This document shows, piece after piece, positions 6,841 through 55,641 of a stretch of 64,000 nt of DNA. The DNA is from Patescibacteria group bacterium (GTDB lineage: Bacteria; Patescibacteriota; Minisyncoccia; Phycocordibacterales; UBA9973): assembly GCA_040389365.1 (NCBI GenBank), contig JAZKAB010000009.1, positions 44,816 to 108,815 of the forward strand, given 5' to 3'. Made by a program: the position numbers and the translations under genes. The notes under the pieces were generated by a model. The model was not told where the DNA came from, searched no databases, and saw nothing but the letters and a program-made list of their open reading frames with translations. Numbering within the stretch: the first letter of the stretch is position 1; each line of letters starts with the position of its first letter.

Positions 6841-6846
6841 ATTGTT

Positions 6847-8308: not shown

Positions 8309-8560
8309 ATGAAAAAAGACACCCATCCCAAGAACTTCCGCGACGTGGTATTTCATGACAACTCGTCTGATACTGATTTCGTGATCGCTTCTACCGTACG
8401 AACTACAGAGACCATTACGAAAGACGGCAAGGAATACCCAATGTTCCGCGTTGAAATTTCAAGCGCCTCTCATCCGTTCTATACCGGTACTGAAAAGGTT
8501 ATCGACACTGCCGGACGCGTTGATCGCTTCAACAAGCGTCGCGCTGCATCAGCAAAGTAA
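8309..8560 (+). CDS. rpmE: 50S ribosomal protein L31 (non-zinc type B)
   Basis: The product starts MKKDTHPK and contains [21 protein letters not shown]. It has no CxxC pair, which marks it as type B. Confidence 0.85.
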
Positions 8561-8570
8561 CGCTGCTATA

Positions 8571-8597
8571 AAAAGCCACTTCGCCGTGGCTTTTTAT
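8571..8597 (+). terminator. terminator hairpin after rpmE
   Basis: The hairpin is aaagccac-ttcgcc-gtggcttt followed by a run of T. Confidence 0.5.
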
Positions 8598-8614
8598 ATT
8601 GCTACACTATACCC

Positions 8615-9556
8615 ATGATCGACATCGACGCCTTAAAAAAGAATCACAAGACCCAATACCTCGCAGAGCAGTACGAAGGTCTTTTGAAGCAGGAGGCTGA
8701 AACGCAGGCGCTTGCCGAGACAGACTCTTCAATGAAGGAAATGGCGCAGGACGAGCTTGAGGCTATTGCCGTGCAGAAGAGCGCGCTTGAAGCGCAGTTC
8801 ATAGCGATCGAAGAGTCAGAAAAGGAAGAGGAGGAGTTTCCAAACGAAATCATTCTTGAAGCCCGTGCAGGCGCGGGCGGCGACGAGGCGAACCTCTTCG
8901 CGCACCAGCTGGTTGAAATGTATTGCCGCTTTGCCGAAAGCAAGGGATGGCAATGGAAGATGACCGACGACATGAGCGTTGAAATCAAGGGGAAGGACGT
9001 GTATCGCTTGCTGCGCTTCGAGACAGGAGTGCACCGCGTGCAGCGCGTTCCTGCAACTGAAAAGAACGGCCGCATCCACACCTCGACTGCGTCCATTGCC
9101 ATTCTGCCTATTAAGAAAAAGGTGACATTTGAAATCAATCCGGCAGACTTGGACATGGAATATTCTCGCTCAGGCGGCGCGGGCGGGCAGAACGTCAACA
9201 AGGTTGAGACGGCCGTGCGCCTCATACACCGCCCGACAGGCATCGACGTGCGCTCAACCAGCGAGCGCAGCCAGCTTGGCAACCGCGAGAAGGCCTTTGC
9301 CATTCTGACTGCCAAGCTGCAGCAAATGAAGGAAGCTGAAGAGGCTGCAAAGTATGCCGGCGATCGCAAGAGCCAGATCGGCACTGCTGATCGCAGCGAA
9401 AAGATTCGTACCTATAACTTCCCGCAAGACCGCCTCACCGACCACCGCATTCGCCAGAACTTCTCCAATATTGAAGGCATTATGGCAGGCAAGCTGGATA
9501 AGGTTATCGACGCGGTGCAGACAGGAGAGTTTGGCGACGCAGCGGAGGAGGAATAG
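8615..9556 (+). CDS. prfA: peptide chain release factor 1
   Basis: It has the GGQ motif ([18 protein letters not shown]) and a PxT tripeptide (RVPATE), which is the RF1 type. There is no internal frameshift site of the kind found in the RF2 gene. Confidence 0.8.
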
Positions 9557-9562
9557 TGCGGC

Positions 9563-9590
9563 TTGAATAAACGCCAGAATTTGGTATAGT
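9563..9590 (+). promoter_or_regulatory. candidate sigma70-like promoter for tRNA-Ile (TTGAAT-16-TATAGT)
   Basis: The -35 and -10 hexamers lie 15 nt upstream of the mature tRNA 5' end. Confidence 0.3.
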
Positions 9591-9605
9591 ACTGCAGTCA
9601 ACCAC

Positions 9606-9677
9606 GCGTGCATAGTTCAGTGGTAGAACGCTGTCCTGATAAGACAGAGGTCCATGGTCCGATTCCATGTGCACGCA
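9606..9677 (+). tRNA. tRNA-Ile (anticodon GAU)
   Basis: It is a 72-nt cloverleaf with a 7-bp acceptor stem (GCGTGCA/TGCACGC), D-loop AGTGGTA, anticodon stem CTGTC/GACAG, loop CTGATAA and T-loop TCCGATT. Confidence 0.8.
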
Positions 9678-9683
9678 CAAAAA

Positions 9684-9713
9684 AACGCCTCTTCGCTATT
9701 GCGAGGAGGCGTT
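9684..9713. terminator. bidirectional terminator hairpin (13-bp stem, loop tatt)
   Basis: The arm aacgcctcttcgc pairs with gcgaggaggcgtt. It lies between the tRNA on the + strand and the convergent - strand gene. Confidence 0.6.
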
Positions 9714-9718
9714 TGCCG

Positions 9719-10075
9719 TTAGGGAAGCAGTGCTTCAATGGTAGGCGGGCCATCTTGCTCGTCTTTGAAAGGAAGCGTTGTGCTGCCAATTACCGCTTCT
9801 TTCAGCTCATAGCTGATATTGCGATGTTCTGTCGCAGCAAAGTCTTCTTTGCCGTCGCCATTGCAGTCGATTGCATAGAGCGAGCCTCTCATGCCAATGA
9901 TCGTGCCGCGCCATATCCATGCAGTATCGGCTGCGGATGCTTCCGAGCGATGCATGTACTTAATGTTTGCCCTTACAGCGGCTAATTCCTCTTCTCTGTC
10001 AAAAGAAGTTTTTTGAAAAGAAAGGATCACGCAGAATCCTACCGCGATAAGCAATATGATATCTCTTTTTAACAT
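9719..10075 (-). CDS. hypothetical secreted protein
   Basis: The ORF has a signal-peptide-like start (MLKRDIILLIAVGFCVILSF). The longer ORF extends to 10102. Confidence 0.4.
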   Translation of the reverse strand: MLKRDIILLIAVGFCVILSFQKTSFDREEELAAVRANIKYMHRSEASAADTAWIWRGTIIGMRGSLYAIDCNGDGKEDFAATEHRNISYELKEAVIGSTTLPFKDEQDGPPTIEALLP

Positions 10076-10127
10076 AACGATGTGTTTTTCATACCATATC
10101 ACATTTTTCTATTTTGTCAAAAAAAAA

Positions 10128-10146
10128 GCCGCCTAGGGGAGGCGGC
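10128..10146 (-). terminator. terminator hairpin (gccgcc-tagggga-ggcggc) with a T-run on the - strand
   Basis: The hairpin overlaps the stop codon of the 10133..10366 ORF. A run of T follows on the - strand at 10120-10127. Confidence 0.45.
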
Positions 10147-10366
10147 CAGTTTGGCTGTGATAGACACGGTGTATGAACGACCTGATCATAATGGCGCAGT
10201 ACGTGCCAATGAAGAAAAGCACTCCCGGAGCTAGTCCGGGCAGATAGGACGGAAGCGTGCCGGAGAACAGCCTGACGGAAAGTGCGGTCAGCAACGCTCC
10301 GAACGGAGAGAGGTACAGGCATGCGGTGAACAGTGCAGCAATGCGAAGGGCGCGAGATCTTTTCAT
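10133..10366 (-). CDS. small hydrophobic protein, hypothetical
   Basis: A 77-aa ORF with two hydrophobic helices. A terminator lies at its 3' end. Confidence 0.3.
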   Translation of the reverse strand: MKRSRALRIAALFTACLYLSPFGALLTALSVRLFSGTLPSYLPGLAPGVLFFIGTYCAIMIRSFIHRVYHSQTGRLP

Positions 10367-10440
10367 AAGCTAACGAATAAGGTTTTAATTAATTTAGCAC
10401 GCATTTACATTTCGTCAAGAGCAGGGTAGAATGGGGCATC

Positions 10441-11160
10441 ATGATACTCAACATTGTCGCGACGCCCATAGGAAATCTTGCCGACATATCTTTGCGCGCA
10501 AAGGAAATGCTCGAGACCGCAACGCTCGTGATTGCAGAAGATACGCGCTCTACCAAGAAGCTGCTCACCCTCCTGGGCATGAACAGCCACAAGGAGTTTC
10601 TTTCTTCGCATGCGCAAAGCAGCGCTCATTCGCTCGACAAGACGCTTGAAGCCTGCGCGGCGCATGCAGTAATTGCGCTTGTCACTGATGCCGGCACGCC
10701 TGCTATTTCTGACCCCGGCTCATTCTTTATCAGCCATTTCAGAGCACTGTACCCAGACGCGCTTGTAGTGCCCATTCCGGGGCCTTCAGCCGCTATTGCT
10801 GCCTTGTCCGTATCAGGCTTTCCCTCAAGCCATTTTGAATTCATGGGCTTCATACCGCATAAGAAGGGGCGCCAGACGCTGTTTCATGCATTGAAGGAAA
10901 AGGAGCATGCCGTTGTGCTGTACGAGTCGCCGCATCGCATTCTCAAGACGCTTGAAGCGCTCGATGAGCATTTGGGCGACAGGTTGATCATGATCGGTCG
11001 CGAGATGACCAAGCAGTTTGAAGAATACCCCGTTAACACTGCCGGTGCATTGCTTGCATACTATACCGAGCATCCTGACAAGGTACGAGGAGAGTTCGTC
11101 ATCGTCATCAGCCCAGAGGGCTACCATCAGTCAGCATCGTCTGATACAATAGAGGAATGA
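10441..11160 (+). CDS. rsmI: 16S rRNA (cytidine1402-2'-O)-methyltransferase
   Basis: It has the tetrapyrrole-methylase fold motifs ILNIVATPIGNLADIS, AEDTR and LVTDAGTPAISDPG. Confidence 0.85.
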   Translation: MILNIVATPIGNLADISLRAKEMLETATLVIAEDTRSTKKLLTLLGMNSHKEFLSSHAQSSAHSLDKTLEACAAHAVIALVTDAGTPAISDPGSFFISHFRALYPDALVVPIPGPSAAIAALSVSGFPSSHFEFMGFIPHKKGRQTLFHALKEKEHAVVLYESPHRILKTLEALDEHLGDRLIMIGREMTKQFEEYPVNTAGALLAYYTEHPDKVRGEFVIVISPEGYHQSASSDTIEE

Positions 11161-11372
11161 TTGGCAAGCTTCGAGTATTATTCTGGTTGGGCATCGTGAT
11201 GCTCTTTTTGCCGTTCTTCGGCATTCCTAATGTATGGAAAACAGTCATCGCAATTGCCATCGGCATTGCGCTTGTTGCATTGGCAATACTGCTGCGAACG
11301 CAGTATCGCGCAGTGCGCACCATTATCCGCAATCTAGAGCAGGCAGCTGCAGGACAAACGCTTCATGAATAA
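11157..11372 (+). CDS. small membrane protein, hypothetical
   Basis: A 71-aa product with two TM helices. Its start overlaps the rsmI stop by ATGA, and the ORF ends inside the start of the ctpA-like gene. Confidence 0.4.
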   Translation: MIGKLRVLFWLGIVMLFLPFFGIPNVWKTVIAIAIGIALVALAILLRTQYRAVRTIIRNLEQAAAGQTLHE

Positions 11373-12621
11373 CGAAACAGAAAACACAGAATCAAACGCA
11401 AAGCCAACGCAGGTCAAGACTGCGCTGCGTATTATTAGCGCTCTTGCAGTTATTGCAGCGGTCTTTCTTGCCGGCGTGTATATTGGCTATGCCAACCGTC
11501 CTGCATTTGCAAAAGTGACTGACATCGTGCACCAGGGCACTCCCGCAACTATTGCCACAACTGCAGACTTTGCGCCATTTTGGAAGGCCTGGCAGGTTGT
11601 TGACCAGAATTTCCCAGGAGCAGACAAGGTAGCGGCTCAGGATCGCATGTATGGCGCTATTAAGGGCATGCTGGCGTCATTTGGCGACCCGTATACCACC
11701 TTCTTCACTCCGTCTGAGAATACGCAATTCCAAAGCCAGATTGCCGGCTCGTTCAGCGGCATTGGCATTGAGATTGGCAAGAAAGACAATATACTGACCG
11801 TTATCGCGCCGCTAAAAGGCACCCCTGCAGAGATTGCCGGCATCAAGTCAGGCGACAAGATTGCAAAGATCAATGATACTGACACTGGTACGATCACGAT
11901 CGATCAGGCAATTGACCTCATTCGCGGCAAGGATGGTACTGTTGTTTCTTTGACCATCGTACGCGAAGGCGTTGCTGCGCCAAAGGTCTATGACATTACA
12001 AGAGCGACAATCGACCTTCCAACAGTTAATACAGAAGTTCGCCCTGACCAGCGGGTATTCGTTATTCATCTTTATAACTTCTCAGCAAACTCAGCAACGC
12101 TTTTCAAGAAGGCTCTGAACGAATACAAGGCATCTGGATATCATAATCTCTTGCTTGACCTTCGCGGCAATCCAGGCGGCTATCTTGAAGCGGCAGTACA
12201 AATCGGCAGCTCATTCGTTCCGGAAGGGAAGGTGATTGTAAAGGAGATTGGCAAGACGCCAGAAGACGTTTCTTCGCACAACAGTACGGGACCTGTTATT
12301 TTCCCAAGCACTGACAAGCTCATCGTGCTTGTCGACAAGGGTTCAGCATCAGCGGCAGAAATTCTTGCGGGAGCGCTCGCCGAGCAAGGCGTCGGCATGC
12401 TCGTTGGCCAGCAGACATTCGGCAAGGGCTCTGTGCAGCAGGTGATTCAGGTGACAAAAGATACTGCTATGAAGGTGACTATTGCGAAATGGTATACGCC
12501 AAACGGCGTGTCTATCTCAGAAAAGGGATTGACTCCGCATATCATTATCCCTGTTGATCCGACTGCCAAGACTGATACCCAGCTTGCCAAGGCAATTGAC
12601 CTCTTCGCCCACCCGCAGTAA
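11365..12621 (+). CDS. S41 family C-terminal processing peptidase (PDZ + peptidase S41)
   Basis: It has an N-terminal TM anchor, a PDZ domain (GIGIEIG...GDKIAKIND), and the S41 motifs LLLDLRGNPGG and LVDKGSASAAEI. Confidence 0.8.
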   Translation: MNNETENTESNAKPTQVKTALRIISALAVIAAVFLAGVYIGYANRPAFAKVTDIVHQGTPATIATTADFAPFWKAWQVVDQNFPGADKVAAQDRMYGAIKGMLASFGDPYTTFFTPSENTQFQSQIAGSFSGIGIEIGKKDNILTVIAPLKGTPAEIAGIKSGDKIAKINDTDTGTITIDQAIDLIRGKDGTVVSLTIVREGVAAPKVYDITRATIDLPTVNTEVRPDQRVFVIHLYNFSANSATLFKKALNEYKASGYHNLLLDLRGNPGGYLEAAVQIGSSFVPEGKVIVKEIGKTPEDVSSHNSTGPVIFPSTDKLIVLVDKGSASAAEILAGALAEQGVGMLVGQQTFGKGSVQQVIQVTKDTAMKVTIAKWYTPNGVSISEKGLTPHIIIPVDPTAKTDTQLAKAIDLFAHPQ

Positions 12622-12632
12622 GATGGAAGGGT

Positions 12633-13067
12633 ATGAAAGTTATTCTGTTAAAAGCCGTACCAAAGGTCGGCAAGGCTAATGATATTGTCGAGGTAAGCGA
12701 AGGCTATGCGCGCAATGCGCTCCTGGCCAAGAAGCTCGCCGTTATCGCAACTCCCCAGGCGATTGCCGAGGTAGAGCGCAGGGCGCAGAACAAGATTGCA
12801 GAAAAGAATATTCAGCATGCTTTGCTGGACAAGGCCATTCAAAGCCTTGAAGGCCAGACCTTGGCGTATCCTGCAAAAGCCAATGAGAAGGGAAGCCTAT
12901 TCTCAAAGATTAGCACGCAGGACATTAGCAAGGCATTGCTGGATCAGCACCGCATTGCAATTGATCCGGTGCTTATGACAATGGAGCCAATCAAGCAGGT
13001 TGGCTCATATACTGTTTCTATAAAGGACGGGGAATACAGCTCATCATTTACCGTATTGGTTAAATAA
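12633..13067 (+). CDS. rplI: 50S ribosomal protein L9
   Basis: The N-terminus MKVILLKAVPKVGKANDIVEVSEGYARN matches L9. Confidence 0.85.
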   Translation: MKVILLKAVPKVGKANDIVEVSEGYARNALLAKKLAVIATPQAIAEVERRAQNKIAEKNIQHALLDKAIQSLEGQTLAYPAKANEKGSLFSKISTQDISKALLDQHRIAIDPVLMTMEPIKQVGSYTVSIKDGEYSSSFTVLVK

Positions 13068-13069
13068 CA

Positions 13070-13100
13070 AAAAAACCTCTCACTAGAGAGGTTTTTTTGT
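13070..13100. terminator. bidirectional terminator between the convergent rplI and rpmA genes
   Basis: The arm acctctc pairs with gagaggt across the loop actag, with a flanking A-run and T-run. Confidence 0.65.
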
Positions 13101-13381
13101 TATCGTGAGTCTACGATGTTTGCCATCTTGCGAACGGTAGTTGTACCATCGAAGTTTAGCTTGCGCTTCTGGCTGAACTTAACGAATCCAGGCTTCAAAG
13201 CGTAGAGCGTGTGGTCTCTGCCAATCCCTACAGCCTTTCCGGCTAGGATCTTCGTACCGCGCTGGCGAACGATGATAGCGCCAGCAATTGCTGTCTGCCC
13301 ATCGTATAGCTTGGTACCAAGATATTTTGGTTGCGAATCATTTAGGTTTTTTGCCGCTCCTTGGGCTTTCTTATGTGCCAT
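13100..13381 (-). CDS. rpmA: 50S ribosomal protein L27
   Basis: The product starts [12 protein letters not shown] and contains [26 protein letters not shown]. Confidence 0.85.
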
Positions 13382-13428
13382 AGTGGTAGCATAATAGCCT
13401 AAACGCCTTTCTGTGTCAATCTCTCTAT

Positions 13429-13830
13429 TTGGGGTATACTAGTGCCATGCGGGCCTTTATCGCCAGACATACTAAGACGCTTTTTGCCTTCACGGGTGCC
13501 CTGGCGGTCATCTTGGCCTTTTATACGGGGTATTTAGAGGGAAAACAGTCGAACACTATGCAGCCCGTTACGCTGTCTTGCAAAGACAACGTATTAGATA
13601 AATTGTCAATACCTGTCGAGGCATTGGCAAATGGAGTAGTGGCGCATGCTGCCGCAGCTCCTGTGCCCGTTCCCGGTACGGCAAAAGGGAAGTATATGGG
13701 CTCAAAGAACAGCACGAAATATTATCTGCCGACATGCAGTGCAGCGAAGCGCATCAAGCCTGAAAACTATATCTGGTTCAGCACGGAAGAGGATGCGCGA
13801 TTGCAGGGCTATACTCCAGGAAAATGTTAA
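13429..13830 (+). CDS. membrane-anchored hypothetical protein with a C-terminal Ada-like metal-binding-type motif
   Basis: It has an N-terminal TM helix. The C-terminus [37 protein letters not shown] follows the pattern YHxPxC...RIxxEN..F.....A...GY.PC..C. Confidence 0.4.
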
Positions 13831-14741
13831 AATCAATTCTATCACTATCTATAATGGCAGCGTTCGGACTGCTCGTCTTCGCCCTGGTCTTGCCGACGCA
13901 GGCGAATGAGGTGGCACAGCGCGTGCTTGGAGGCGCTATAATGATAAACAACGCAGTGGGCGTGAACAGCGCGCCAGTGAAGACTATTTCAAATGCTGTC
14001 ACGTCAGTTATCTCAACAGTCGTGTCAGAAGAAAAGCCTGCGGCAAAGAAAGACAATTCGCCGCTCTCCATTGAAAATATTATTGACGCAACGAACGTTG
14101 AGCGCGTGAAGGCGAATCTGCCGCCGCTGAAGACCGATGCCAAGCTTGCTGCGTCTGCGAAGATAAAGGTTGATGATATGATCAAGAACCACTATTTTGA
14201 GCACACGTCTCCGGCAGGAAAAACTGTTGCCGACTTGGGCAATCAGGTTGGCTATGACTATGTCGTTATGGGAGAGAACCTGGCACTGGGAGACTTTTCC
14301 AATGCGACAGAACTGCTGCAGGCATGGATGAATAGTCCCGGGCATCGCGCTAACGTATTGAATGCATCATACGAAGAGATTGGCGTCTATGCGGCACAGG
14401 GCACGTATCAGGGCCGCACTGTGTGGTTTGCAGTGCAGCACTTCGGCACAGAGCGGGGAGTGTGCCCTAGCCTGAATGCGGCGCTTAAGACGTCTATCAA
14501 CACCCTCAATGCCCGCATCAAGACCCAGGAAGGGCAGATAACTGCATTGCGAAAGCAAATAGAAGCTCCAGACCACGTACAAGGGCAGGCATACAGCGCC
14601 CTTATCGCGCAATTCAATGCGCTGGTAGCCTCATACAATTCAGATGTCACCTTGTCACAGCAGAAGGTTGGCGAATACAACAGGCAGGTTGTTACGTTCA
14701 ACAAGTGCTTGAGCCAATACCAAGTATCTTTAACTGAATAG
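13824..14741 (+). CDS. secreted CAP/SCP (PR-1-like, YkwD-type) domain protein with a C-terminal coiled coil
   Basis: It has a signal peptide and the CAP motifs HYFEHTSP and GENLALGDFSNATELLQAWMNSPGHRANVLN. Confidence 0.7.
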   Translation: MLKSILSLSIMAAFGLLVFALVLPTQANEVAQRVLGGAIMINNAVGVNSAPVKTISNAVTSVISTVVSEEKPAAKKDNSPLSIENIIDATNVERVKANLPPLKTDAKLAASAKIKVDDMIKNHYFEHTSPAGKTVADLGNQVGYDYVVMGENLALGDFSNATELLQAWMNSPGHRANVLNASYEEIGVYAAQGTYQGRTVWFAVQHFGTERGVCPSLNAALKTSINTLNARIKTQEGQITALRKQIEAPDHVQGQAYSALIAQFNALVASYNSDVTLSQQKVGEYNRQVVTFNKCLSQYQVSLTE

Positions 14742-14802
14742 TTTTCAACACCTTTATTGACTTTGTCAATAAAGGGGAGTAGAGTAGGGAAAACTCAAAA
14801 CA

Positions 14803-15278
14803 TGAATAAAGCATTAACTAAACGGAAGCTTAAGCGGCAGACGCTTAAGCATGCAGTCTCGCAGAATTTAATTCTATCGGTGCTCATTCCTATCGCAACG
14901 GTACTCTTTGTTATAGGCGCACTGTTCGTAGCACTTCCAATTGTGCTCGCTGTACGTACTCAAACCTTACCGCCAGGCTCCCAAGCTCTAAGCGTGGGCA
15001 GCATGGCCGGGTTCGTAGCAATGCTGGTAATATTTCTTGCTGCCATGCTTGAGCTAGCAGTGCGGCTCGTTGGCTCAAATAAGAAGCTTCAGAGGGCATA
15101 CTTGCAGGCAAAGGTAGACGCATTTAACAAGTGCGACAAAGAGAAGTCTGGCAAGGTACTCGCAGCAACGCTGGAGAACAATGCAATGCTTAAAGAGCAG
15201 TTTTTAAAAATTGACGATCAGTGGCAAAAGCTCAGACAAGATTGCAATGAGGCTGAAAATTTTTTAAAAACAATTTAA
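14803..15278 (+). CDS. membrane protein, hypothetical
   Basis: The ORF is open from 14757. An 11-bp hairpin at 14748-14773 overlaps that upstream start, so the Met at 14803 (MNKALTK...) is preferred. The product has two TM helices followed by a coiled coil. Confidence 0.4.
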
Positions 15279-15285
15279 AATTTAG

Positions 15286-15322
15286 AATCCCGTAGGGCAG
15301 GCTGCTCGCGGGATTTTTTTTT
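15286..15322 (+). terminator. strong rho-independent terminator (aatcccg...cgggatt followed by T9)
   Basis: A GC-rich hairpin is followed by a run of nine T. It marks the end of the housekeeping block. Confidence 0.65.
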
Positions 15323-15671
15323 ATTGGAATAGGAAGCATCTTTATTGCTGTATAAAGTGCGCTAGGGAGTATGTATAAGAAATTATATTAACGTCGCACA
15401 ATTAAGCCTTATGCGACAAGCTTTTTAATACAATCCACACAATCCACAGCCTATATATGCCTATCTATAAATATTATAAAAATAATATATATGAGATATT
15501 CTTGTGGAAAACTTTATACAGATCGTTAATATCATCGGATTTTGGCATCTATTTTTCTTCGTACTTTTGCTGGGAACAATCCTAGTTGCACTTTTCTACA
15601 TCGCGCTCTCATGGATGGCTTACGGTATCGCTCGCGCTTGGCGCATCGGTATCAAAGGGTCACGCTAAAAC

Positions 15672-47682: not shown

Positions 47683-49143
47683 GTGTACACTTTGTACATG
47701 CTTATATTAGACATTTTCGATCGCTTCTTCGGAAGAAATGGCCAGCAGGTTATAGACCCCGAGGCAGTATCAGTAAAAAAGTACCCGCTCAGCGCCCATC
47801 TCAACGATCCCGACTCCCGCGACGTTTCCTATCCGTTCGTTGCCGGATCGATCGCGCCTTCGTTTCCAGCGCAATACAATACGGACGTATCTCACATGAC
47901 CCGTCTATGGCAGGGATATTTGGGTACCTGCGTGGCGCACTGCTACGAATTCATCAAGCGGCTTCTTGATTTCAATGAGACTGGTGCCGAGACAATATAT
48001 TCCCGCCGCTTTCTCTATGTTCTAACCCGTCGCTTCACGAATGCGGTGAATACCGACTCTGAGCAGAACCAGGGGCTTTCTCCTCGTGATGCTGCAAAGA
48101 TACTCGCTACGGCAGGAATTGCTAAGGATAGCGGCCAGGATGACAACAGTCTTCCTCATAGTGCTTACGTGAACAGTTATGTTGTTACTGATGCCATGAG
48201 AAGCGAGGCGGCACTTTACCGATCCGGAGGATTCGCGTTTCCTATCATCGACTCCAGCGTCCTAAAGAAGGCGATCATGCAGAACAAGGCGGTAGGAGTG
48301 ACTATCGGGATAGACTGGTCCAAAGTCTCGCCTGACGGCACCGTGCGCCCTCCTGCGGTCCTTGCAGGCTTCCATGAGGTTGCCCTGTACGGATGGGAGA
48401 CTGTCAGCGGAAAGGAGCGCTTCATCGCCCGAAACTGGTGGCCAGAATTGCCAAACCTTTACATAAACAGCGAAGACATTGAAAAGGTAGTATACGACTC
48501 GATCGTCTTTACGGACATTCCGAACGATCTTCTTTTGCGAGCAAAGCAGCGGCAGTACGTGTTCCTCACCGATCTCAAGCAGGGAATAGTGAGCGACGCG
48601 GTAGTCCAGCTGCAGAAGTGCCTGAAAGAATACGGCCTTTTCTCGGCGGCATTCAGCAGGTCTTTCGGCCCCGCTACGCTGCAGGCAGTGAAGGATTTCC
48701 AGAAACTGAAAGGCCTGACAGCTGACGGCGCATTAGGGCCGAAGAGTCGCGCCGCTCTCAACGAGTCGGCAGGGAATACGCTTTCAAAGTCAAGGCTCGA
48801 CTTGTGGTGCGAGGCGGCGAAGAATATGGACGGGGCAAAGTCCTATCTCAACAATCCTGGCAATATCCGCTGCAACGCGATAATGAACAAGAACGCGATA
48901 AGCGTAAGCAACAACGGCTTCTGCATGTTCCCTACATACGAGGCAGGGTACAAGGCCCTGCGCGATATGTTTATCCGAGCAGCTACCATAGGCACTGCAA
49001 ACTATCAGCCGACAATGACCCTGTATCAGTTCTATGCGAAATATGCTCCTTCTAACGACGGCAACGATCCGAACCATTATGCCGAATATGTGGCGACCCA
49101 TATTGGAGTATCACCTAGCACGATGATCAAGGATCTGGTATAA
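47683..49143 (+). CDS. putative endolysin: papain-like cysteine peptidase + PG_binding_1 peptidoglycan-binding domain + unknown C-terminal domain
   Basis: WQGYLGTCVAHCYEF (Q...C) and GFHEVALYGWE (His strand) match the papain pattern. DAVVQLQKCLKEYGLFSAAFSRSFGPATLQAVKDFQKLKGLTADGALGPKSRAAL is a PG_binding_1 repeat. Confidence 0.55.
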   Translation: MYTLYMLILDIFDRFFGRNGQQVIDPEAVSVKKYPLSAHLNDPDSRDVSYPFVAGSIAPSFPAQYNTDVSHMTRLWQGYLGTCVAHCYEFIKRLLDFNETGAETIYSRRFLYVLTRRFTNAVNTDSEQNQGLSPRDAAKILATAGIAKDSGQDDNSLPHSAYVNSYVVTDAMRSEAALYRSGGFAFPIIDSSVLKKAIMQNKAVGVTIGIDWSKVSPDGTVRPPAVLAGFHEVALYGWETVSGKERFIARNWWPELPNLYINSEDIEKVVYDSIVFTDIPNDLLLRAKQRQYVFLTDLKQGIVSDAVVQLQKCLKEYGLFSAAFSRSFGPATLQAVKDFQKLKGLTADGALGPKSRAALNESAGNTLSKSRLDLWCEAAKNMDGAKSYLNNPGNIRCNAIMNKNAISVSNNGFCMFPTYEAGYKALRDMFIRAATIGTANYQPTMTLYQFYAKYAPSNDGNDPNHYAEYVATHIGVSPSTMIKDLV

Positions 49144-49334
49144 GATCCATAATACCCAGATAGTATATAAAAAAGCCTTATTTTCTGGTGACTTATCCAC
49201 AGGTATTGCACATTTCTGCAAAATAAGTAGTATACTGTGTGTATTAAAAGTAAGGTGTCCGCCCATAGAAAAAGCCCTCAAACGCGTTAATGAGAGCTTA
49301 ATCTAGGTTTAATGCAAAATAAAGAAAGTCTAGC

Positions 49335-49365
49335 CCTCAGTTTTAAAACTGAGGTTTTCTTATTT
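49335..49365. terminator. bidirectional terminator (perfect palindrome cctcagttttaaaactgagg followed by a T-run)
   Basis: A 20-nt perfect palindrome is followed by ttttcttattt. Confidence 0.55.
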
Positions 49366-49388
49366 CCACTTGGAACCTCTGAATGTTA

Positions 49389-49544
49389 TTACTTGCACAT
49401 GCCGTGTTCGGGGCAGAATGGTGGCCAGCTACGGAGACCGTAAAGGCGGGCATTCTTGCACACACCATTTGGACAGATCACTGTACGGAACAGCATCTTT
49501 TTGCCACAAACGGGACACAGACACGGCTTTTTTGAATTTGCCAT
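49389..49544 (-). CDS. Cys-rich 51-aa protein (MANSKKPCLCPVCGKKMLFRTVICPNGVCKNARLYGLRSWPPFCPEHGMCK), hypothetical
   Basis: It has eight Cys in 51 aa arranged as CxCxxC...CPxxxC. The terminator palindrome lies 35 nt downstream on the - strand. Confidence 0.3.
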   Translation of the reverse strand: MANSKKPCLCPVCGKKMLFRTVICPNGVCKNARLYGLRSWPPFCPEHGMCK

Positions 49545-49654
49545 ATTTGGTTGTAGTGTTCGATAGTTTGGTTAAGAGGTCGATCCCTCTCCCGCATGCC
49601 TGAAATTTCTGAAGCAATGGCTGGGTAACTAACAACTGTTGATAGTGGGAGTGA

Positions 49655-49815
49655 TGTAGTGAGAAACAAAAATGTCCTGCACTACGTTCTATAGGTTGCG
49701 GCGGCCAAACAAAGAATTTGTTTGAACATCTACAATTGTAGGTATTCAAGTGATGCGAATCACCTTTCAACCTACAGAACGTAAAGCAGGACATGCTGCT
49801 TTGTTTGACTCTCTC
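49655..49815. promoter_or_regulatory. extended imperfect palindromic element downstream of the integrase gene (candidate att / recombinase-binding region or ncRNA)
   Basis: Long inverted repeats are tcctgcactacgttctataggttg (49674) against caacctacagaacgtaaagcagga (49767), and gagaaacaaaaatgtcctgc against gcaggacatgctgctttgtttgac. Central mini-palindromes are ctacaattgtag and gtgatgcgaatcac. Confidence 0.35.
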
Positions 49816-49884
49816 GTGCATCACTACGAGTTAATTTTTTAAAACTGATCCCATTATAGCATATTTTTATGTAAAAGTTAAATC

Positions 49885-50715
49885 CTAAATGTATTTTTTA
49901 GCCAGTCGCTTGAACTCGTCCGGCAGTAGGGATGTATACATTTGAGTCGATATGATGGTCCGGTGCCTCAGCACTTCCTTGATGTCATTGAGGTGTGCCC
50001 CGTCCTTGAGCATCTTGTGCGCTTTCCCGTGCCTGAACATGTGCGGATGGACATTGTGACCTATTCCGGCATTCGTCGCTACTGAGGCGACCCAGCGCTC
50101 TACAGAGCGGGTAGTGATGCGCTCGCCCTTGCGGTTCGTGAACAGCGCGGGGTGCTCGTCAAGGCAAAGCTTGGTCCCTATGTACCGCATCAAGAGCTTG
50201 TGAGATTTTCCGCTCCACATGATCCAATCCATATGCCTGTTTTTCTTGGTGACGATCTTGGCGAAGTGGCGAGTGTTCTTTATATCGAGCACGTCCAGGT
50301 CGCACAATTCAGATACTCGTATGCCCGTACTCCACAATAGGTTGATGACAAGCTTCTTCTGCAGGGAATAGTACTCCCATTCGCTCAGCGACTTGTCCAT
50401 CATCCTGAACTCCTGCTCCGTAATGAAAGAGACGGGCTCAGGGGTAAATTTTGGCCGCTTGATCAGCTTCGGGTTTACCTCGGTGCGGTAGTATGAAAAG
50501 AAGTCTTTCAGTATGTTTACATAATAGACTATGGTTCTCGGCTTGAACGGGAGGGAAGCGATGAAGCTGGTAACGTCGCTTTGCGCTATCTTTGTCATCT
50601 CCTTTGAGCAGTGCTTCTCGAATGCTGCCAAGCACGGCGCATAGGAAATAGAGGCGGGAACCGCGTAGCTCCTTTTCCAATCCAGATATTCAGTTATTGC
50701 TCTTGATATATGCAT
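49885..50715 (-). CDS. tyrosine recombinase / phage integrase (XerD-like)
   Basis: It has the C-terminal catalytic motifs HMFRHGKAHKML...LRHRTIISTQMYT (R-H-R-Y). The ORF is open to 50814, and the start at MHISRAITEY is preferred. Confidence 0.75.
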   Translation of the reverse strand: MHISRAITEYLDWKRSYAVPASISYAPCLAAFEKHCSKEMTKIAQSDVTSFIASLPFKPRTIVYYVNILKDFFSYYRTEVNPKLIKRPKFTPEPVSFITEQEFRMMDKSLSEWEYYSLQKKLVINLLWSTGIRVSELCDLDVLDIKNTRHFAKIVTKKNRHMDWIMWSGKSHKLLMRYIGTKLCLDEHPALFTNRKGERITTRSVERWVASVATNAGIGHNVHPHMFRHGKAHKMLKDGAHLNDIKEVLRHRTIISTQMYTSLLPDEFKRLAKKYI

Positions 50716-50943
50716 AAAACACAAAACCGCGGGGAAAAACCGCGGTTCGTGCTGTTGCAACATAGCCCAAAAGAGGGCCACGATCAGTATAGCAAAATCC
50801 ATTGTTTTCCCCATACCCTTGCGGGCACGTCCTTTGCAGGCAACGGCGTTATTCGGTTATGTTCGCATATTAACCTTATATTAGATTATGTCAAGTAGGG
50901 AAGCATCTTAATACTTTTATGCTCAAGTTCTATACTTTTAAAC

Positions 50944-51156
50944 ATGAACACATATTCAGCAACTCAACAGTCAAACCTGGTGGCGATCGCGGGAGTAATA
51001 GCCCTCATTCTCAACCACTTCCATATCAACATCGGCAGCGATGACATCATGCTCCTGCTCGGCTCAGGCCTTGCGGTAATCGGCGTCGTTACTAACTGGG
51101 TGCACAGATACCAGAAAGGCGACCTTACTCTCGGAGGATTTAGAAAAGGGTACTAG
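50944..51156 (+). CDS. small membrane protein
   Basis: A 70-aa product with two TM helices. Confidence 0.35.
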   Translation: MNTYSATQQSNLVAIAGVIALILNHFHINIGSDDIMLLLGSGLAVIGVVTNWVHRYQKGDLTLGGFRKGY

Positions 51157-51164
51157 TCACTTAC

Positions 51165-51234
51165 TGCGGTTTAGTATAATGGTAGTACGCCGGGCTCATA
51201 TCCCGGAAGCGCTGTTCGATTCAGTCATCCGCAA
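51165..51234 (+). tRNA. tRNA-Met (anticodon CAU)-like, with two stem mismatches and a short variable region
   Basis: The fold has D-loop AATGGTA, anticodon stem CCGGG/CCCGG with three G:C pairs, loop CTCATAT and T-loop TTCGATT. Mismatches occur at 6:67 (T-T) and 49:65 (C-C), and the length is 70 nt. Confidence 0.5.
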
Positions 51235-51240
51235 CAATAA

Positions 51241-51268
51241 GAAAGCCCCTTTATAAAGGGGCTTTTGC
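51241..51268 (+). terminator. hairpin terminator after the tRNA (aaagccccttt-ata-aaggggcttt)
   Basis: An 11-bp stem is followed by ttgcc. Confidence 0.5.
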
Positions 51269-51403
51269 CTAGGCGGCTTGCGTTCCATCGATCGTTCGAT
51301 GAACTGTCTTTAATTTCTTTTTGTTGCTTGTGATCCTTACGAACCAGATGAAGATGGTGAAGGCTCCGAGAATGATGATTCCGATGATTACATATGGTCC
51401 CAT
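51269..51403 (-). CDS. 44-aa single-TM peptide, hypothetical
   Basis: MGPYVIIGIIILGAFTIFIWFVRITSNKKKLKTVHRTIDGTQAA. A hairpin follows its stop. Confidence 0.25.
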   Translation of the reverse strand: MGPYVIIGIIILGAFTIFIWFVRITSNKKKLKTVHRTIDGTQAA

Positions 51404-51932
51404 AGCTGACTGTTTTGTTAAGTCTACATCTTAAGAGCAGGAGTTATTAACATGTTCTTGCAAGTAATACTTGCACGCAATTTCAGGTGGTATATACTTA
51501 AGGAGGTTCGATAAAAACTTTATAGAAAGTCATACAAAAATCTTCCTCCAGTACGGGAAACGGCCGGGGATAAGTGGTGTATAAATCGGGATCTGAATGT
51601 TAACAACTTTTCGACGATAAAAAGTTACGGGGAGTTGTTATATTTTTATCCACAGTAACGTCGCACAATATATCTTTCGCGTCGTCTATATTCATTTTCA
51701 GCTATACTCTGTGTATGGCGCTGAATATCTACGCTGCAAATACTGGCATGTCGCATTCAATCGGTAGTCTCTAAACTCTTGGCTGTCATATCTAAAAGAT
51801 ATTGAACTTAGCATAAACGGCTGAGACGTCAGCTATGATTATGCGGAGCTGGAGGCTACCGAGTGAATGCAGACATATTGTCTTCTTTAAGATAATTCAG
51901 GGGAGACGCACTTCCCTTTCCTGTATAGTATT

Positions 51933-52301
51933 TTAAAACTCTCTTTTCTCGAAAGAAACGGCATGATTTACAATTTGGCCAGTGAACCACTGGCTATAAA
52001 AACAAAGGCGGATTGTAATTATTAAGTCTAGGATGTAAAGGGAAACCTTGCCATTCTGTGGAAATGAGCTGATCTGAAACAATACTGACAATACGATAGT
52101 AATTACTATAACTGTAAAATTGATAATTATTTTTCTACTATTTTCCCCTCGTGTAATTTTCAATGTAACTTCACCGCTCTTACTTTTGTGATCTTTCCAT
52201 CTTGAATACAAAAATAAGGTCACTATAATTATTTGTAAGATTATAAACCATAGCATATCACTTTGAATGAGAGTTGTTAGTTTGATTATGCAAATATTCA
52301 T
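51933..52301 (-). CDS. membrane protein, hypothetical (distal gene of the R-M operon)
   Basis: A 122-aa product with three TM helices. The DNA here is AT-rich. Confidence 0.35.
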   Translation of the reverse strand: MNICIIKLTTLIQSDMLWFIILQIIIVTLFLYSRWKDHKSKSGEVTLKITRGENSRKIIINFTVIVITIVLSVLFQISSFPQNGKVSLYILDLIITIRLCFYSQWFTGQIVNHAVSFEKREF

Positions 52302-52316
52302 ATTAATTAGTTATTA

Positions 52317-53576
52317 TTATATAGGCTCAACTATATCCATGGTTTTTAGATCAGGTTTTTTTTCAAGCATAGCGATTAAACATTTTCCTATATGATATCC
52401 AAGATTTACGGGAACTGCATTTCCGATTTGCTTATATTGAGATGATGTTGAACCTTGAAAATCCCAATTGTCAGGGAACGACTGTATACGCGCATATTCA
52501 CGAACCGTAAGAGGACGAGTTTCTTCTGGGTGACATCTTTCCGTTTGCTTTTGAGCGGGCGCACAGGTTAAAGTCAAACTTGGTTCATCCCAAGATAGCC
52601 TTCGTGCCATTCCTGTCTTGCCTCCTCCTAAATAAAAGCTTCCTTGCATATATTCTTTCTGAAGATCTATTGGAAGATCTCTCCAGTATCCCCCTTGTGG
52701 GATCAGGCTCAATATTTCCTTCTTTCTTTTAGGATATTGTTGCCCTGCTGATATTGGTACATTTTGCAAAGCCTCTCTTAAGCTAACTGTGTAATCTTGT
52801 TCTTTTGGAAAAAGTATAGGTAGGTCTAGGTCGTTGCGCACCCCTAAAATTACCAATCTTTCGCGTTTTTGTGCAACATCTAAGTATTGTGATCTAAGTA
52901 CTTTATAGGCAACTTTATATCCTAGCTCCTTTAGAACAGAGATAATTACCGGCAATGTTTTTCCTTCATCATGAGTCAATAAGCCTTTAACATTTTCACC
53001 CATAAAAATTTTAGGGCGTATTTCTTTTACACATCTTGCGAGTTCGAAAAACAACGTTCCGCGAGCGTCATTAAACCCCATTTTTTTCCCAGCTTCACTA
53101 AAAGCTTGGCAAGGAAACCCACCTTCAACAATATCTGCCTTATATCCGCTGAAATCAAAATCTCTTACATCGGCTCTAACCGCATTCCATTCCGGATGGT
53201 TCTTGTTTAGTGTAGAAACAGAATCCTTATCCAAATCAACCAGCAATGCATGCTTTAAACCAGCATTTTCAAAACCGAGTGCTGTTCCACCTGCACCTGC
53301 AAAAAGTTCCACCACCGTATAGCCGGTTTTTTTATTTGACTTAAGTACTTTGAATTTATTCCCATTGCTTTTTCCTGCAATTTTTTCCTGCAATTTTTTA
53401 ATTTCAGAAAAACTAAAAAGCCTATGATTTTGATCAGATCGAGTAGCTTTAATTAACCCTTTTTTTTCCCACCTTCTAATAGTATCGGTTGAAACGTCTA
53501 TTGCTTCTGCTGCCTCATGAACATTTAATAGCTTATCCATGGCTATAGTATATATTAGTACCCTTGCTATATGCAA
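52317..53576 (-). CDS. DNA (cytosine-5)-methyltransferase with an N-terminal helix-turn-helix domain
   Basis: It has motif I (ELFAGAGGTALGFENAG), motif IV (GGFPCQAFS), ENV, and an N-terminal HTH (LNVHEAAEAIDVSTDTIRRWEKKGLI). Confidence 0.8.
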   Translation of the reverse strand: MHIARVLIYTIAMDKLLNVHEAAEAIDVSTDTIRRWEKKGLIKATRSDQNHRLFSFSEIKKLQEKIAGKSNGNKFKVLKSNKKTGYTVVELFAGAGGTALGFENAGLKHALLVDLDKDSVSTLNKNHPEWNAVRADVRDFDFSGYKADIVEGGFPCQAFSEAGKKMGFNDARGTLFFELARCVKEIRPKIFMGENVKGLLTHDEGKTLPVIISVLKELGYKVAYKVLRSQYLDVAQKRERLVILGVRNDLDLPILFPKEQDYTVSLREALQNVPISAGQQYPKRKKEILSLIPQGGYWRDLPIDLQKEYMQGSFYLGGGKTGMARRLSWDEPSLTLTCAPAQKQTERCHPEETRPLTVREYARIQSFPDNWDFQGSTSSQYKQIGNAVPVNLGYHIGKCLIAMLEKKPDLKTMDIVEPI

Positions 53577-53581
53577 GGGTA

Positions 53582-54298
53582 CTAATATATTTTATCAAAT
53601 AATGCTTTGTAGGAATCAGATTTAATTAATTGGGTTGGCGATTTCTTCAGCGCAATGCATGTAATTAATATTAAATTCATATAAATTTTTTCCAAAGCAT
53701 TTGGGTCTCCCGTAGCTAGTTCATAAAAGCTTTTCCCATCAATAACCCTTATCTTTTCATTTATTGGACGCCTAGATTTTGAATTATTATCTGAAGGAGT
53801 AAAAGAATTATTATAAACTTTTTTATTTTTAGGTATTATTTCAACATAATATCCTATATATCCTTCATATGTAGTATTTAGTAAACCATTGAGATTGTCG
53901 TAAATAGCAGTTTTATGATTACCTTTAGTTGTATTATGCTTATTCTTAACCTCAGCTATTATTTTCTTTTTAGTATTCTTAACATCTATTATCTTCCCTG
54001 TCCCAAGGTTTTCCCAGCCCTTAAATGAGCCAATAACATTTTGGTGAAACTCACCTAGTGCATTCTGAAGGCTTTTTTGAATTTGACGTGCTTTTTCTTG
54101 TTCAATCCAATCGGAAATTGAAATGTTTTTTAAAAGGCTTTCGAATAAGGCAGAAAATGGGTCAACGGAGTTTTTATAGAAATCCGCATCGCTTTTTTCA
54201 AGAGATCTTTTAGCAACTGAAATAACCGCATTTACATGTTTTGTTAAATCTTCATTCGATATAAATGGTAATTCTGGCACTATAATCTTACTGTTCAT
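53582..54298 (-). CDS. putative type II restriction endonuclease (partner of the C5 methyltransferase)
   Basis: A 238-aa AT-rich gene lies immediately upstream of the MTase gene in the same operon. It has no diagnostic motif, and the call is by context. Confidence 0.45.
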   Translation of the reverse strand: MNSKIIVPELPFISNEDLTKHVNAVISVAKRSLEKSDADFYKNSVDPFSALFESLLKNISISDWIEQEKARQIQKSLQNALGEFHQNVIGSFKGWENLGTGKIIDVKNTKKKIIAEVKNKHNTTKGNHKTAIYDNLNGLLNTTYEGYIGYYVEIIPKNKKVYNNSFTPSDNNSKSRRPINEKIRVIDGKSFYELATGDPNALEKIYMNLILITCIALKKSPTQLIKSDSYKALFDKIY

Positions 54299-54393
54299 GT
54301 TGTTATGATATCTTAATCTTGTCGAAATTACCATCTCTTAAATTAGGCTATAATTTATCTTTTCTTGATACAATACTACAACATTTTACTTCT

Positions 54394-54819
54394 ATGCCCG
54401 ATATCTTCACCCCTCAAAAAAGAAGCGAGATCATGTCGCTCATTCGCTCAAAGAATACCAAACCTGAGCTGGTATTCTTCAGGCTGCTAAGCGTCGCCTT
54501 TCATTCAAAAGGCTATCGATACCGCAAGCACTATAATTCCCTTCCTGGGCGTCCTGACGCAGTGTTTGTATCTCGAAAAATAGCACTGTTTGTTGATGGC
54601 GATTTCTGGCACGGCTATCGATTCGATCTCGCAACGACAAGGCTTGCCGAAGGATACTGGAGGGACAAGATAGTGCGCAATATGCAGCGTGATAGAGCCG
54701 TAAATAGGAAGCTTAAGAAAGCAGGCTGGACTGTCATGCGCTTCTGGGAGCATGATGTAAAGAAGCATCCTGAGAAGATTGTATTAAAGATTGAAAAGAA
54801 GCTGCAGATTTCTGAATAA
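54394..54819 (+). CDS. vsr: very short patch repair endonuclease
   Basis: It has TPQKRSEIMSLIRSKNTKPE and FVDGDFWHG, which are Vsr family signatures. It is divergent from the REase gene. Confidence 0.8.
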   Translation: MPDIFTPQKRSEIMSLIRSKNTKPELVFFRLLSVAFHSKGYRYRKHYNSLPGRPDAVFVSRKIALFVDGDFWHGYRFDLATTRLAEGYWRDKIVRNMQRDRAVNRKLKKAGWTVMRFWEHDVKKHPEKIVLKIEKKLQISE

Positions 54820-54930
54820 TGGCAAATGTTATTTTTGTGCTATGATTAGTTCGTACTTGTACTTTTGATTTTTATAGTTTTTCAGCCCCATATTTCCAGC
54901 AACGGAAGTATGGGGTTTTTCATATATGCA

Positions 54931-54957
54931 ATAAAAAAGCCGAGGTTCTCTCGGCTT
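54931..54957 (-). terminator. terminator for the - strand methyltransferase gene (aagccgag-gttct-ctcggctt plus a T-run on the - strand)
   Basis: An 8-bp stem is followed by a T6 run on the - strand. Confidence 0.5.
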
Positions 54958-54963
54958 TAACAG

Positions 54964-55641
54964 TTACTTCTTCTTTTTCCTAAAGATCATTAGGTCATGA
55001 GTACACTGCATCCATAAGCACAGCTCGCTCTTTTCCCATGTAGAGCTATGCTCAGCATAGATTTCAAGCGAGTGCTCTTCGGCTAGTTCCCTAACATACT
55101 TATCTGCATAATAATACATGTTGACGATACCGTTAACATTTTCGCATACCTGCGGCTGCTGTCCCCATTCTTGCTGCTTGTACGAGATAAGGTCAGCAAT
55201 GAAATACCCTTCAGGTTTCAGTATGCGGCTAGCCTCTGAAAAAAGATTGCCTATACTGGAGAGATATCCAACAGATAGCAGGCATGTTGCGATTTTCGTG
55301 CTTGAGTCAGGAACGGGCAATGCTTCAGAAAGTACGTTGCAGATTGCTGAATTGATCTCGTACTCATCCATTTTTGTACGGTTTAAATAGTTGATCATTT
55401 GCGCAGATCCGTCTATCGCAAAACCTTTTTTCATTCCCAGGCGCTTAAGAAAGCACATAAGTGAAATTCCGGGGCCTGATGCAATATCGACCAGAGTATC
55501 GTCAGCAAATACCTCGGTGTCCAGCTCGCTGCAGACAAAGTCGGCTAGCTGCTCATGCACTATGAATCGTGCATCTTCAGAAAAGCTTTCGATAAAAGAC
55601 TCAATATCGACTTCGTATTGATAATAATGCAATGCTTCCAT
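54964..55641 (-). CDS. class I SAM-dependent methyltransferase
   Basis: It has a motif I-like segment (LVDIASGPGISLMCF) and the distal ILKPEGYFIADL motif. Confidence 0.6.
   Translation of the reverse strand: MEALHYYQYEVDIESFIESFSEDARFIVHEQLADFVCSELDTEVFADDTLVDIASGPGISLMCFLKRLGMKKGFAIDGSAQMINYLNRTKMDEYEINSAICNVLSEALPVPDSSTKIATCLLSVGYLSSIGNLFSEASRILKPEGYFIADLISYKQQEWGQQPQVCENVNGIVNMYYYADKYVRELAEEHSLEIYAEHSSTWEKSELCLWMQCTHDLMIFRKKKK

Follow-up and report, generated by a model that had tools for sequence, protein, structure and literature searches.

Sequence comparison points to an acquired Eco47II/Sau96I-family restriction–modification islet with a putatively self-repressing MerR-type methyltransferase, between a prophage and a resident vsr gene in a Patescibacteria genome

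We analysed a 64,000-nt stretch of a metagenome-assembled genome (MAG) of a Patescibacteria group bacterium (GenBank assembly GCA_040389365.1, 113-kb contig JAZKAB010000009.1, positions 44,816–108,815 of the forward strand; hereafter the window), in which a preliminary description made from the sequence had marked out an AT-rich restriction–modification (R-M) islet beside a prophage. The islet encodes a type II restriction endonuclease (REase; here R), then a C5-cytosine methyltransferase (MTase; here M) with an N-terminal helix-turn-helix (HTH) domain, and then a small membrane protein; a gene for a Vsr endonuclease diverges from R on its right side (Table 1). Our overall reading, to which we assign a probability of about 0.8, is that this is an acquired R-M system of the Eco47II/Sau96I family whose methyltransferase represses its own gene through a MerR-type HTH, and that it lies outside the prophage and next to a resident vsr gene. 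The R-M system itself is ordinary, and NCBI already annotates R (as an Eco47II family restriction endonuclease, 100% identity), M (as a DNA (cytosine-5-)-methyltransferase) and Vsr in the MAG; new here are a conserved operator that supports self-regulation and a comparison with a near-isogenic relative. The first provides a testable operator–repressor pair in a very widespread methyltransferase family, and would extend the principle of a methyltransferase acting as its own controller to another DNA-binding fold and to a tandem operon in which R comes first.

The case for self-regulation begins with the domain structure of M, which matches Pfam DNA_methylase (PF00145, E = 7e-82) and NCBIfam TIGR00675 (262 bits) and contains the C5-MTase motifs I, IV, VI, VIII and X (FxGxG, PCQ, ENV, QxRxR and GNAV). 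The catalytic domain occupies approximately residues 74–395 (52356–53321) and is preceded by an HTH at approximately residues 4–56 (53373–53531), for which the Pfam models MerR, MerR_1 and HTH_17 also score above their cut-offs. When an AlphaFold (AF2) model of residues 1–75 (predicted local distance difference test score, 79.7) was compared with known structures using Foldseek, the top matches were the MerR-type winged HTH proteins RacA, BldC, GlnR/TnrA, NmlR, CadR and MtaN, and the structures of GlnR/TnrA and several other top matches were solved in DNA-bound form; the modelled N-terminal domain has the fold of a MerR-type winged HTH. M carries no MerR coiled-coil or effector domain, the winged HTH being followed by a linker and then by the methyltransferase. 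In this it resembles minimal MerR-like binders such as GlnR/TnrA, RacA and BldC, which have the same winged HTH fold without the long coiled coil or effector domain of MerR, except that the domain in the window is fused to an enzyme. The fusion of MerR and DNA_methylase domains recurs in all 120 best homologues of M (68–83% identity), and M aligns from end to end, N-terminal domain included, with a 407-position PADLOC model for type II MTases. The recognition helix, DTIRRW(E/D)KKGLI, varies hardly at all across the methyltransferase family.

A candidate binding site for this domain lies directly upstream of M. The 41-bp spacer between R and M, TACCCTTGCATATAGCAAGGGTACTAATATATACTATAGCC, which is followed immediately by the ATG of M, holds most of a perfect 27-bp palindrome, AGTACCCTTGC-ATATA-GCAAGGGTACT, that starts in the stop codon of the REase and lies over the −35-like hexamer and spacer of the predicted M promoter. 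This predicted operator is the sole zero-mismatch match to CCNTTGC-N5-GCAANGG in the window, and it contains no GGNCC, which makes it distinct from the predicted methylation site. We compared it with 82 related loci (L002–L004 and L006–L085), 80 of which are GTDB loci: in 64 of the 82, R and then an HTH-MTase are arranged in tandem, in 4 the genes converge, and in 13 the methyltransferase is without a detectable copy of this HTH, a class that was set by tblastn using the HTH of the window. Of 68 loci that have this HTH, 66 carry the operator no more than 250 bp from the start of M, and none of the 13 without the HTH carries it convincingly; with 65 copies observed against 2.8 expected, its density is approximately 23-fold over the background of these loci. 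The consensus over 63 loci is ATAACC[CAT]TTGCAT[AT]ATGCAA[GT]GGTTAT, with 11 positions at 2.0 bits of information content in loci whose REases are just 44–66% identical to R of the window. We take the near-invariant recognition helix and the invariant operator half-site to be a matched pair.

The same palindrome might act only as an RNA hairpin, terminating or stabilizing the REase transcript, with the HTH serving some other role. Such a role would fit its position, since many loci have it beginning at the stop codon of R, and as RNA it folds at −20.3 kcal/mol. However, no T-run follows the palindrome and a terminator scan gave no call for it. Further, only 21 of the 63 copies have fully complementary arms, and it is the sequence itself rather than pairing alone that is conserved, as the 11 positions at 2.0 bits indicate. 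In the four convergent loci the operator stays at the start of M, far from the 3′ end of R, and where this HTH is absent there is no convincing copy of the palindrome. Invariant positions combined with imperfect arms favour a protein site over an RNA hairpin, and we consider the hairpin explanation distinctly unlikely.

The position of the operator relative to the predicted M promoter points to repression. In the window, this promoter consists of TTGCAT, an 18-nt spacer and TATACT, and the ATG of M comes 6 nt past the −10 element, from which the M mRNA is probably leaderless. Across the 63 operator-bearing loci, the left half-site holds a −35-like TTGCAT or TTGCCT; a −10 element is found at a 17-bp spacer in 37 of them and the spacer measures 17–18 bp in 48; the −10 is a perfect TATAAT in 26 of the 63. 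The distance from operator to ATG is 19–22 nt in 18 of the 63, a geometry that they have in common with the window and that implies a leaderless M mRNA. MerR-activated promoters have spacers of 19–20 bp, whereas those of the M promoters here are 17–18 bp, so that M would be expected to repress by occluding the promoter and not to activate by distorting the DNA.

No comparable signals accompany R. The region upstream of R (54299–54393) showed no strong consensus promoter in a generic promoter scan. Upstream of R, the window has no copy of the operator and a single locus of 64 has one, and no conserved motif, such as a C box, was found there. Similarly, neither the list of open reading frames (ORFs) nor the Pfam matches revealed a separate small Xre-type C gene in the islet.

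Two further features of these upstream regions were seen in the related loci. Shine–Dalgarno-like sequences are rare in 64 Eco47II-family loci (found before R in 5 and before M in 3), which fits leaderless or Shine–Dalgarno-independent initiation. In 29 loci (for example, L025, L037, L039, L043, L059 and L062) the operator centre is 4 nt long (CCNTTGCCTAGGCAANGG), and many of these have a second conserved inverted repeat, ATGATAG-N8–10-CTATCAT, between the −10 element and the start of M; this repeat, which the window does not have, may represent either a further operator or a hairpin in the 5′ untranslated region.

These observations best support autogenous repression, in which M shuts off its dedicated promoter by means of its N-terminal domain; we infer both binding and repression from sequence. 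The HTH of M, as a dimer, would bind the 27-bp palindrome over the −35-like hexamer and spacer of the M promoter. In a naive cell, the unrepressed M promoter would fire first and the genome would become methylated; accumulating M would then close its own promoter, bringing the M:R ratio low enough to restrict incoming DNA, with R expressed from a weak, unregulated upstream promoter. Autorepression of M at its own promoter would account for the safe establishment of an operon in which R comes first. The preliminary description had proposed that the HTH acts as a built-in controller, which is very probably correct given that a conserved operator co-occurs with the HTH over the predicted M promoter. 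It had also remarked that the toxic gene is placed first: the R-then-M order stands, and a separate predicted promoter in the spacer, apparently specific to M, resolves the puzzle that it poses.

There are precedents for dual-function methyltransferases that act as repressors, namely M.SsoII/Ecl18kI, M.MspI and M.EcoRII (PMC2760811, PMC12707154). Like these, the window has a C5-MTase with an N-terminal HTH and a palindromic operator on the predicted M promoter, and as in the M.SsoII/M.Ecl18kI type, the expected outcome is autogenous repression of M. M.SsoII's regulatory domain was modelled on the Xre-type repressor of phage 434 (PMC3978073), whereas the domain here is of the MerR type, suggesting that the same working principle is carried out by another domain lineage. 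The gene arrangement also differs: the SsoII/Ecl18kI genes diverge from a shared intergenic region, whereas in the window R and M are in tandem and the operator is in the spacer between them. Because the operator occurs upstream of R in only 1 of 64 loci, activation of R by promoter competition in the manner of Ecl18kI is unlikely. In tandem R-then-M operons of the EcoRI type, M has promoters of its own. The M promoter of the window differs from those in lying within a dedicated spacer together with a predicted operator for the HTH of the methyltransferase itself. In the literature that we searched, we found no account of a MerR-type methyltransferase fusion or of this operator.

The enzymes of the system are more conventional. 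The candidate REase proved to belong to a nuclease family and not to a non-nuclease one, an outcome on which the preliminary description had made its case depend: R matches Pfam RE_Eco47II (PF09553) at E = 2e-55 and 187.9 bits (cut-off, 25.9). Its residues D105, E116 and K118, which form a D-x10-E-V-K core, are invariant in an alignment of 26 homologues, R included, in agreement with the published assignment of Eco47II, which is 33% identical to Sau96I, to the PD-(D/E)XK nucleases (PMC3045609). With a PF09553 match at 188 bits, the PD-(D/E)XK residues and a complete adjacent C5-MTase 41 bp downstream, the pair resembles the type II R-M systems of Eco47II and Sau96I, which combine a PF09553 REase with a C5-MTase and target GGNCC; it differs in being only 66% (R) and 83% (M) identical to its nearest sequenced relative. 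The Pfam and NCBIfam matches thus bear out the description of a type II R-M islet in which the REase precedes a C5-MTase fused to an HTH, and with their catalytic motifs intact, R and M look functional, to judge from their sequences.

By family membership, the predicted target of R is GGNCC; the predicted product of M is 5-methylcytosine. The GGNCC specificity has been demonstrated for Eco47II, Sau96I and MAGa3950; in the last case, the modified DNA resisted Sau96I, the enzyme used for GGNCC sites. For the Eco47II homologue and DCM4 of M. hominis, GGNCC is a prediction, and the methylome signal was near background. Motif depletion in the prophage relative to the host, which had been proposed as a check, revealed nothing specific for GGNCC: under a maximal-order Markov model, the ratio of observed to expected sites is 1.15 in host segments and 0.99 in the prophage, which contains 75 sites. 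Low ratios obtained with a plain base-composition model were set aside, as they were seen equally for unrelated palindromic pentamers.

An alternative is a system that is real but has a target other than GGNCC, or an inactive REase accompanied by an orphan methylase. Avoidance of GGNCC is not seen, the specificity is read from family membership alone, and the REase has diverged faster than the methyltransferase (66% versus 83% identity to the nearest relative). On the other hand, R has a full-length ORF and keeps every invariant REase residue, including those of D-x10-E-x-K; alignments of M with the three best PADLOC MTase models run unbroken through the target-recognition region; and three members of the family have GGNCC as their demonstrated target. 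We therefore regard a different target or a defunct endonuclease as unlikely, although it deserves more credence than the other alternatives weighed here.

Some observations count against the overall reading of a GGNCC-specific, self-repressing system. The absence of GGNCC avoidance in host and prophage alike leaves the specificity without independent support. TTGCAT agrees with TTGACA at three of six positions, the generic promoter scan gave the M promoter no score, and promoters of Patescibacteria are uncharacterised. The RNA form of the palindrome might, given its folding energy, also act on transcripts that read through from R. Finally, the 13 loci without the HTH were defined by tblastn with the HTH of the window, and at least one related plasmid system carries a more diverged MerR-like N terminus.

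The family to which R belongs is widespread, and its pairing with an HTH-fused M in the order R then M recurs in hundreds of species. We detected 917 relatives of the REase at E ≤ 1e-5 in the protein collection and at least 464 in species-representative genomes, distributed over Patescibacteria, Proteobacteria, cyanobacteria and other groups. By comparison, 50,697 phage records contained no match to the Eco47II family, and 2.9 million viral contigs yielded only approximately 9 clear relatives, each of them below 44% identity; there were 5 hits on plasmids. In the 80 GTDB loci, Vsr is nearby in 4 and a homologue of the membrane protein in none, which indicates that the conserved unit comprises R and the HTH-fused M only. 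One plasmid relative, on the Psychrobacter plasmid pA15P1 (NZ_MN657035.1), is isolate-derived and mobilizable; its M and R genes diverge, its methyltransferase has a more diverged MerR-like N terminus (VSKRNMEAWEKNGKL) and no CCNTTGC palindrome is visible in its intergenic region.

Evidence that the islet was acquired comes from a close relative of the host, NCBI contig JAWVHH010004842.1 (L197), which we reached through a search with Vsr, its orthologue being 98% identical. In blastn alignments, L197 is 93% identical to the window over 6247–9728, 90% over 10140–15401 and 92% over 54390–54819. Its gene order is RF, RsmI-like, CtpA, L9, L27, a CAP-domain protein, a 172-amino-acid (aa) protein, an unrelated 1.2-kb AT-rich cassette and vsr, with neither a prophage nor an R-M system. 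A more distant relative, L198, whose Vsr is 78% identical, shares the same arrangement from backbone to vsr and likewise has no R-M system or prophage. The islet appears acquired because a close relative with 90–93% identical flanks has no R-M system, and because the GC content of the R-M genes is 0.30–0.38 compared with 0.48 for the window. On this evidence, the segment from approximately 51670 to 54360 is, by sequence, a 2.7-kb horizontally acquired islet located at a variable spot between the phage attB site and the resident vsr. Horizontal acquisition, as the preliminary description had supposed, is thus upheld, and conservation of the islet in all relatives, which would have spoken for residence, is not what we see. 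The flanks of the closest M homologue (83% identity) are unrelated to those of the window.

The composition of the segment agrees with these limits. R has a GC content of 0.30, M of 0.38, the membrane protein ORF of 0.31 and Vsr, which is host-like, of 0.46. The AT-rich block described earlier is therefore real for R, M and the membrane protein ORF but does not take in Vsr, and it stops at about 54360 rather than 54830. Homology to L197 on the right resumes at approximately 54360 by eye and at 54390 by blastn. The only repeats bordering the islet were chance 8-mers. A synteny comparison anchored on a P-type ATPase was uninformative, as the metagenome relatives were approximately 70% identical and shared no local gene order.

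Was the R-M system instead brought in as cargo of the prophage, a so-called moron? The preliminary description had placed the islet directly beside the phage attachment region, and in this it was right, attR lying at 51656–51669; it had also suggested co-mobilisation, which our data do not support. In favour of cargo, the islet start is approximately 270 bp from the prophage end, near the integrase and tRNA-Met genes, and relative to L197 the prophage and islet form one unbroken difference of 39 kb. However, the 14-bp att repeats at 15389 and 51656 enclose phage genes only, among them PHROGs matches to terminase, portal, major head protein, endolysin and integrase, and the R-M genes (52317–54298) lie outside them. 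The single attB copy of L197, TAACGTCGCACAA, matches these repeats and is located exactly where homology to the left flank of the window ends (15401), and the bases that follow attR on its right side (TCTTTCGCG) resemble those on the right of the L197 attB. The whole prophage is missing from L197 and L198. In L197, the stretch between attB and vsr holds the other AT-rich 1.2-kb cassette, which argues for a cassette swap in bacterial DNA, and the distribution of the Eco47II family (at least 464 species-representative genomes, no phage record and the approximately 9 viral-contig relatives) points away from phages. Arrival with the prophage is, on balance, very unlikely. A search for the integrase in the viral contigs returned no relative; terminase relatives are present there and were not used as evidence.

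The tRNA-Met gene was considered as the location of the att site and rejected, as no 11-mer or longer stretch of the tRNA recurs in the window. In the homologous host stretch, L197 and L198 have tRNA-Ile only. The tRNA-Met appears to be phage-borne and not the integration target.

A third way to explain the arrangement would be joint acquisition of Vsr, R and M as a three-gene 5-methylcytosine (5mC) module. The genes are directly adjacent and divergent, an association of Vsr with C5-MTases is known, and 4 of the 80 GTDB loci have Vsr no further than 6 kb away, one of which (L076) has the same layout. By contrast, the Vsr orthologues of L197 and L198 occupy the same backbone position with no R-M system there; the GC content of Vsr (0.46) is set apart from that of R and M (0.30–0.38); blastn homology to L197 restarts 4 bp before the vsr ATG; and tblastx of the L197 1.2-kb cassette gave no remnants of R or M. 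We attach almost no credence to joint acquisition, and the coupling of Vsr to the islet in the preliminary description falls away on these same grounds. On sequence comparison, Vsr is a resident backbone gene and not part of the acquired islet, and its juxtaposition with R would be the result of R-M insertion beside a pre-existing vsr. The adjacent Vsr would repair T:G mismatches arising from 5mC deamination. The near-isogenic comparison indicates that the R-M cassette and the prophage each occupy a variable hotspot beside a resident vsr in a reduced genome of the candidate phyla radiation, and it cautions that adjacency, whether to Vsr or to a prophage, is not proof of co-acquisition.

Vsr itself (NCBI MES2225011.1) scores 121.3 bits against TIGR00632 (cut-off, 97.85). 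As in other members of this family, it has the equivalents of the catalytic residues of the Escherichia coli enzyme, D55, H73 and D100 (E. coli D51, H69 and D97), and these are invariant. It differs from E. coli Vsr in the zinc site (Cys66, His71, Cys73 and Cys117), which is not kept: D stands at the position of C66 and H at that of C117, and the H71/C73 region falls in an alignment gap; 13 homologues show the same. Replacement of the zinc ligands Cys66 and Cys117 extends throughout the Patescibacteria clade to which the window Vsr belongs, with D, N, T or G in place of C66 and H in place of C117, the catalytic Asp and His being kept.

The third gene of the islet encodes a membrane protein that the preliminary description had counted among its components. 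It is not a conserved partner of the R-M system, as its absence from all 80 Eco47II-family loci makes plain, and the ORF that follows M in the closest R-M relative showed no homology to it. The protein matched no model of Pfam, NCBIfam or PADLOC above the cut-off, and it forms a singleton cluster at 90% identity. Its family is small, with 50 representatives at E ≤ 1e-3 in an exhaustive HMMER search, the best of them 47% identical. We looked up the neighbours of seven homologues (L200 and L202–L207). Found directly upstream are an HNH protein and, in co-directional orientation, an Eco57I-type N6-MTase with an SNF2/PLD protein; the other neighbours are a CD-NTase, a ComM-like ATPase, a phage packaging gene and a large serine recombinase with an Xre repressor. 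Such neighbours suggest that the family travels in mobile or defence contexts, and the 122-aa protein may be an accessory defence or exclusion factor.

Taking the regulatory and membrane components together, one may propose that MerR-type self-regulating methyltransferases are an independently evolved class and that the 122-aa membrane family is a possible accessory defence or exclusion factor, a combined proposal for which we find the balance about even. If it holds, the class would be defined by a conserved operator of approximately 23–27 bp that overlies the −35-like hexamer and the spacer of an M promoter that is dedicated and often leaderless, in a tandem R-then-M operon, and would be spread over hundreds of species, being especially common in Patescibacteria, apparently without experimental description.

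The coordinates of all features are collected in Table 1. The four ORFs that had been reported between 51930 and 54830 are all present as described, with start codons of R, M and Vsr corrected according to NCBI and homologues; with the corrected starts, the R and Vsr ORFs no longer overlap. PADLOC classifies the REase, methyltransferase and Vsr genes as REase_II, MTase_II and Vsr, respectively.

Table 1. Features of the islet and its surroundings, in window coordinates (+ and −, strand; TM, transmembrane)
Feature	Coordinates	Strand	Remarks
Prophage	15389–51669	.	~36.3 kb; att repeats and PHROGs matches
attL core	15389–15402		14-bp direct repeat
Integrase	49885–50814	−	PHROGs; prophage gene
tRNA-Met (anticodon CAT)	51165–51235		Inside att boundaries
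attR core, TAACGTCGCACAAT	51656–51669	.	14-bp direct repeat; islet starts directly to the right
Small membrane protein	51933–52301	−	122 aa; 2–3 TM segments by hydropathy; 15 nt 3′ of M, co-directional
HTH-fused C5-MTase (M)	ORF 52317–53576; corrected 52317–53540	−	407 aa; corrected start ATG 53540 (NCBI and homologues)
Predicted M promoter	53547–53576	−	−35-like 53571–53576; −10 53547–53552
Predicted operator palindrome	53557–53583	−	27 bp; R–M spacer
Eco47II-family REase (R)	ORF 53582–54334; corrected 53582–54298	−	238 aa; corrected start ATG 54298 (NCBI and homologues)
R/vsr divergent intergenic region	54299–54393	.	95 bp; holds right islet junction
Vsr endonuclease	ORF 54319–54819; corrected 54394–54819	+	141 aa; corrected start ATG 54394 (NCBI and homologues)
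Intrinsic terminator 3′ of vsr	54884–54917	+	14-pair stem, then T-run

Some minor observations concern the surrounding sequence. An Rfam scan of 49000–56500 returned tRNA only. A contig from the read set SRR26324622 is identical to the window over 50199–58007. At 54505–54768 on the minus strand (3240–3503 in L001), the Logan contig gene caller gave an 87-aa antisense ORF in place of vsr, which is an annotation artefact. A second small indel hotspot lies directly 3′ of tRNA-Ile (9606–9678), where approximately 410 bp of the window (9729–10139) are missing from L197, which has 11 bp at this position. To the right of vsr, between 54830 and 57400, are small genes for a 225-aa S-adenosylmethionine-dependent methyltransferase and for DUF2795, SHOCT and DUF1801 proteins; the GC content of this stretch, 0.40–0.44, is under the host level, and the variable region may reach further in this direction than the available part of L197, which stops earlier.

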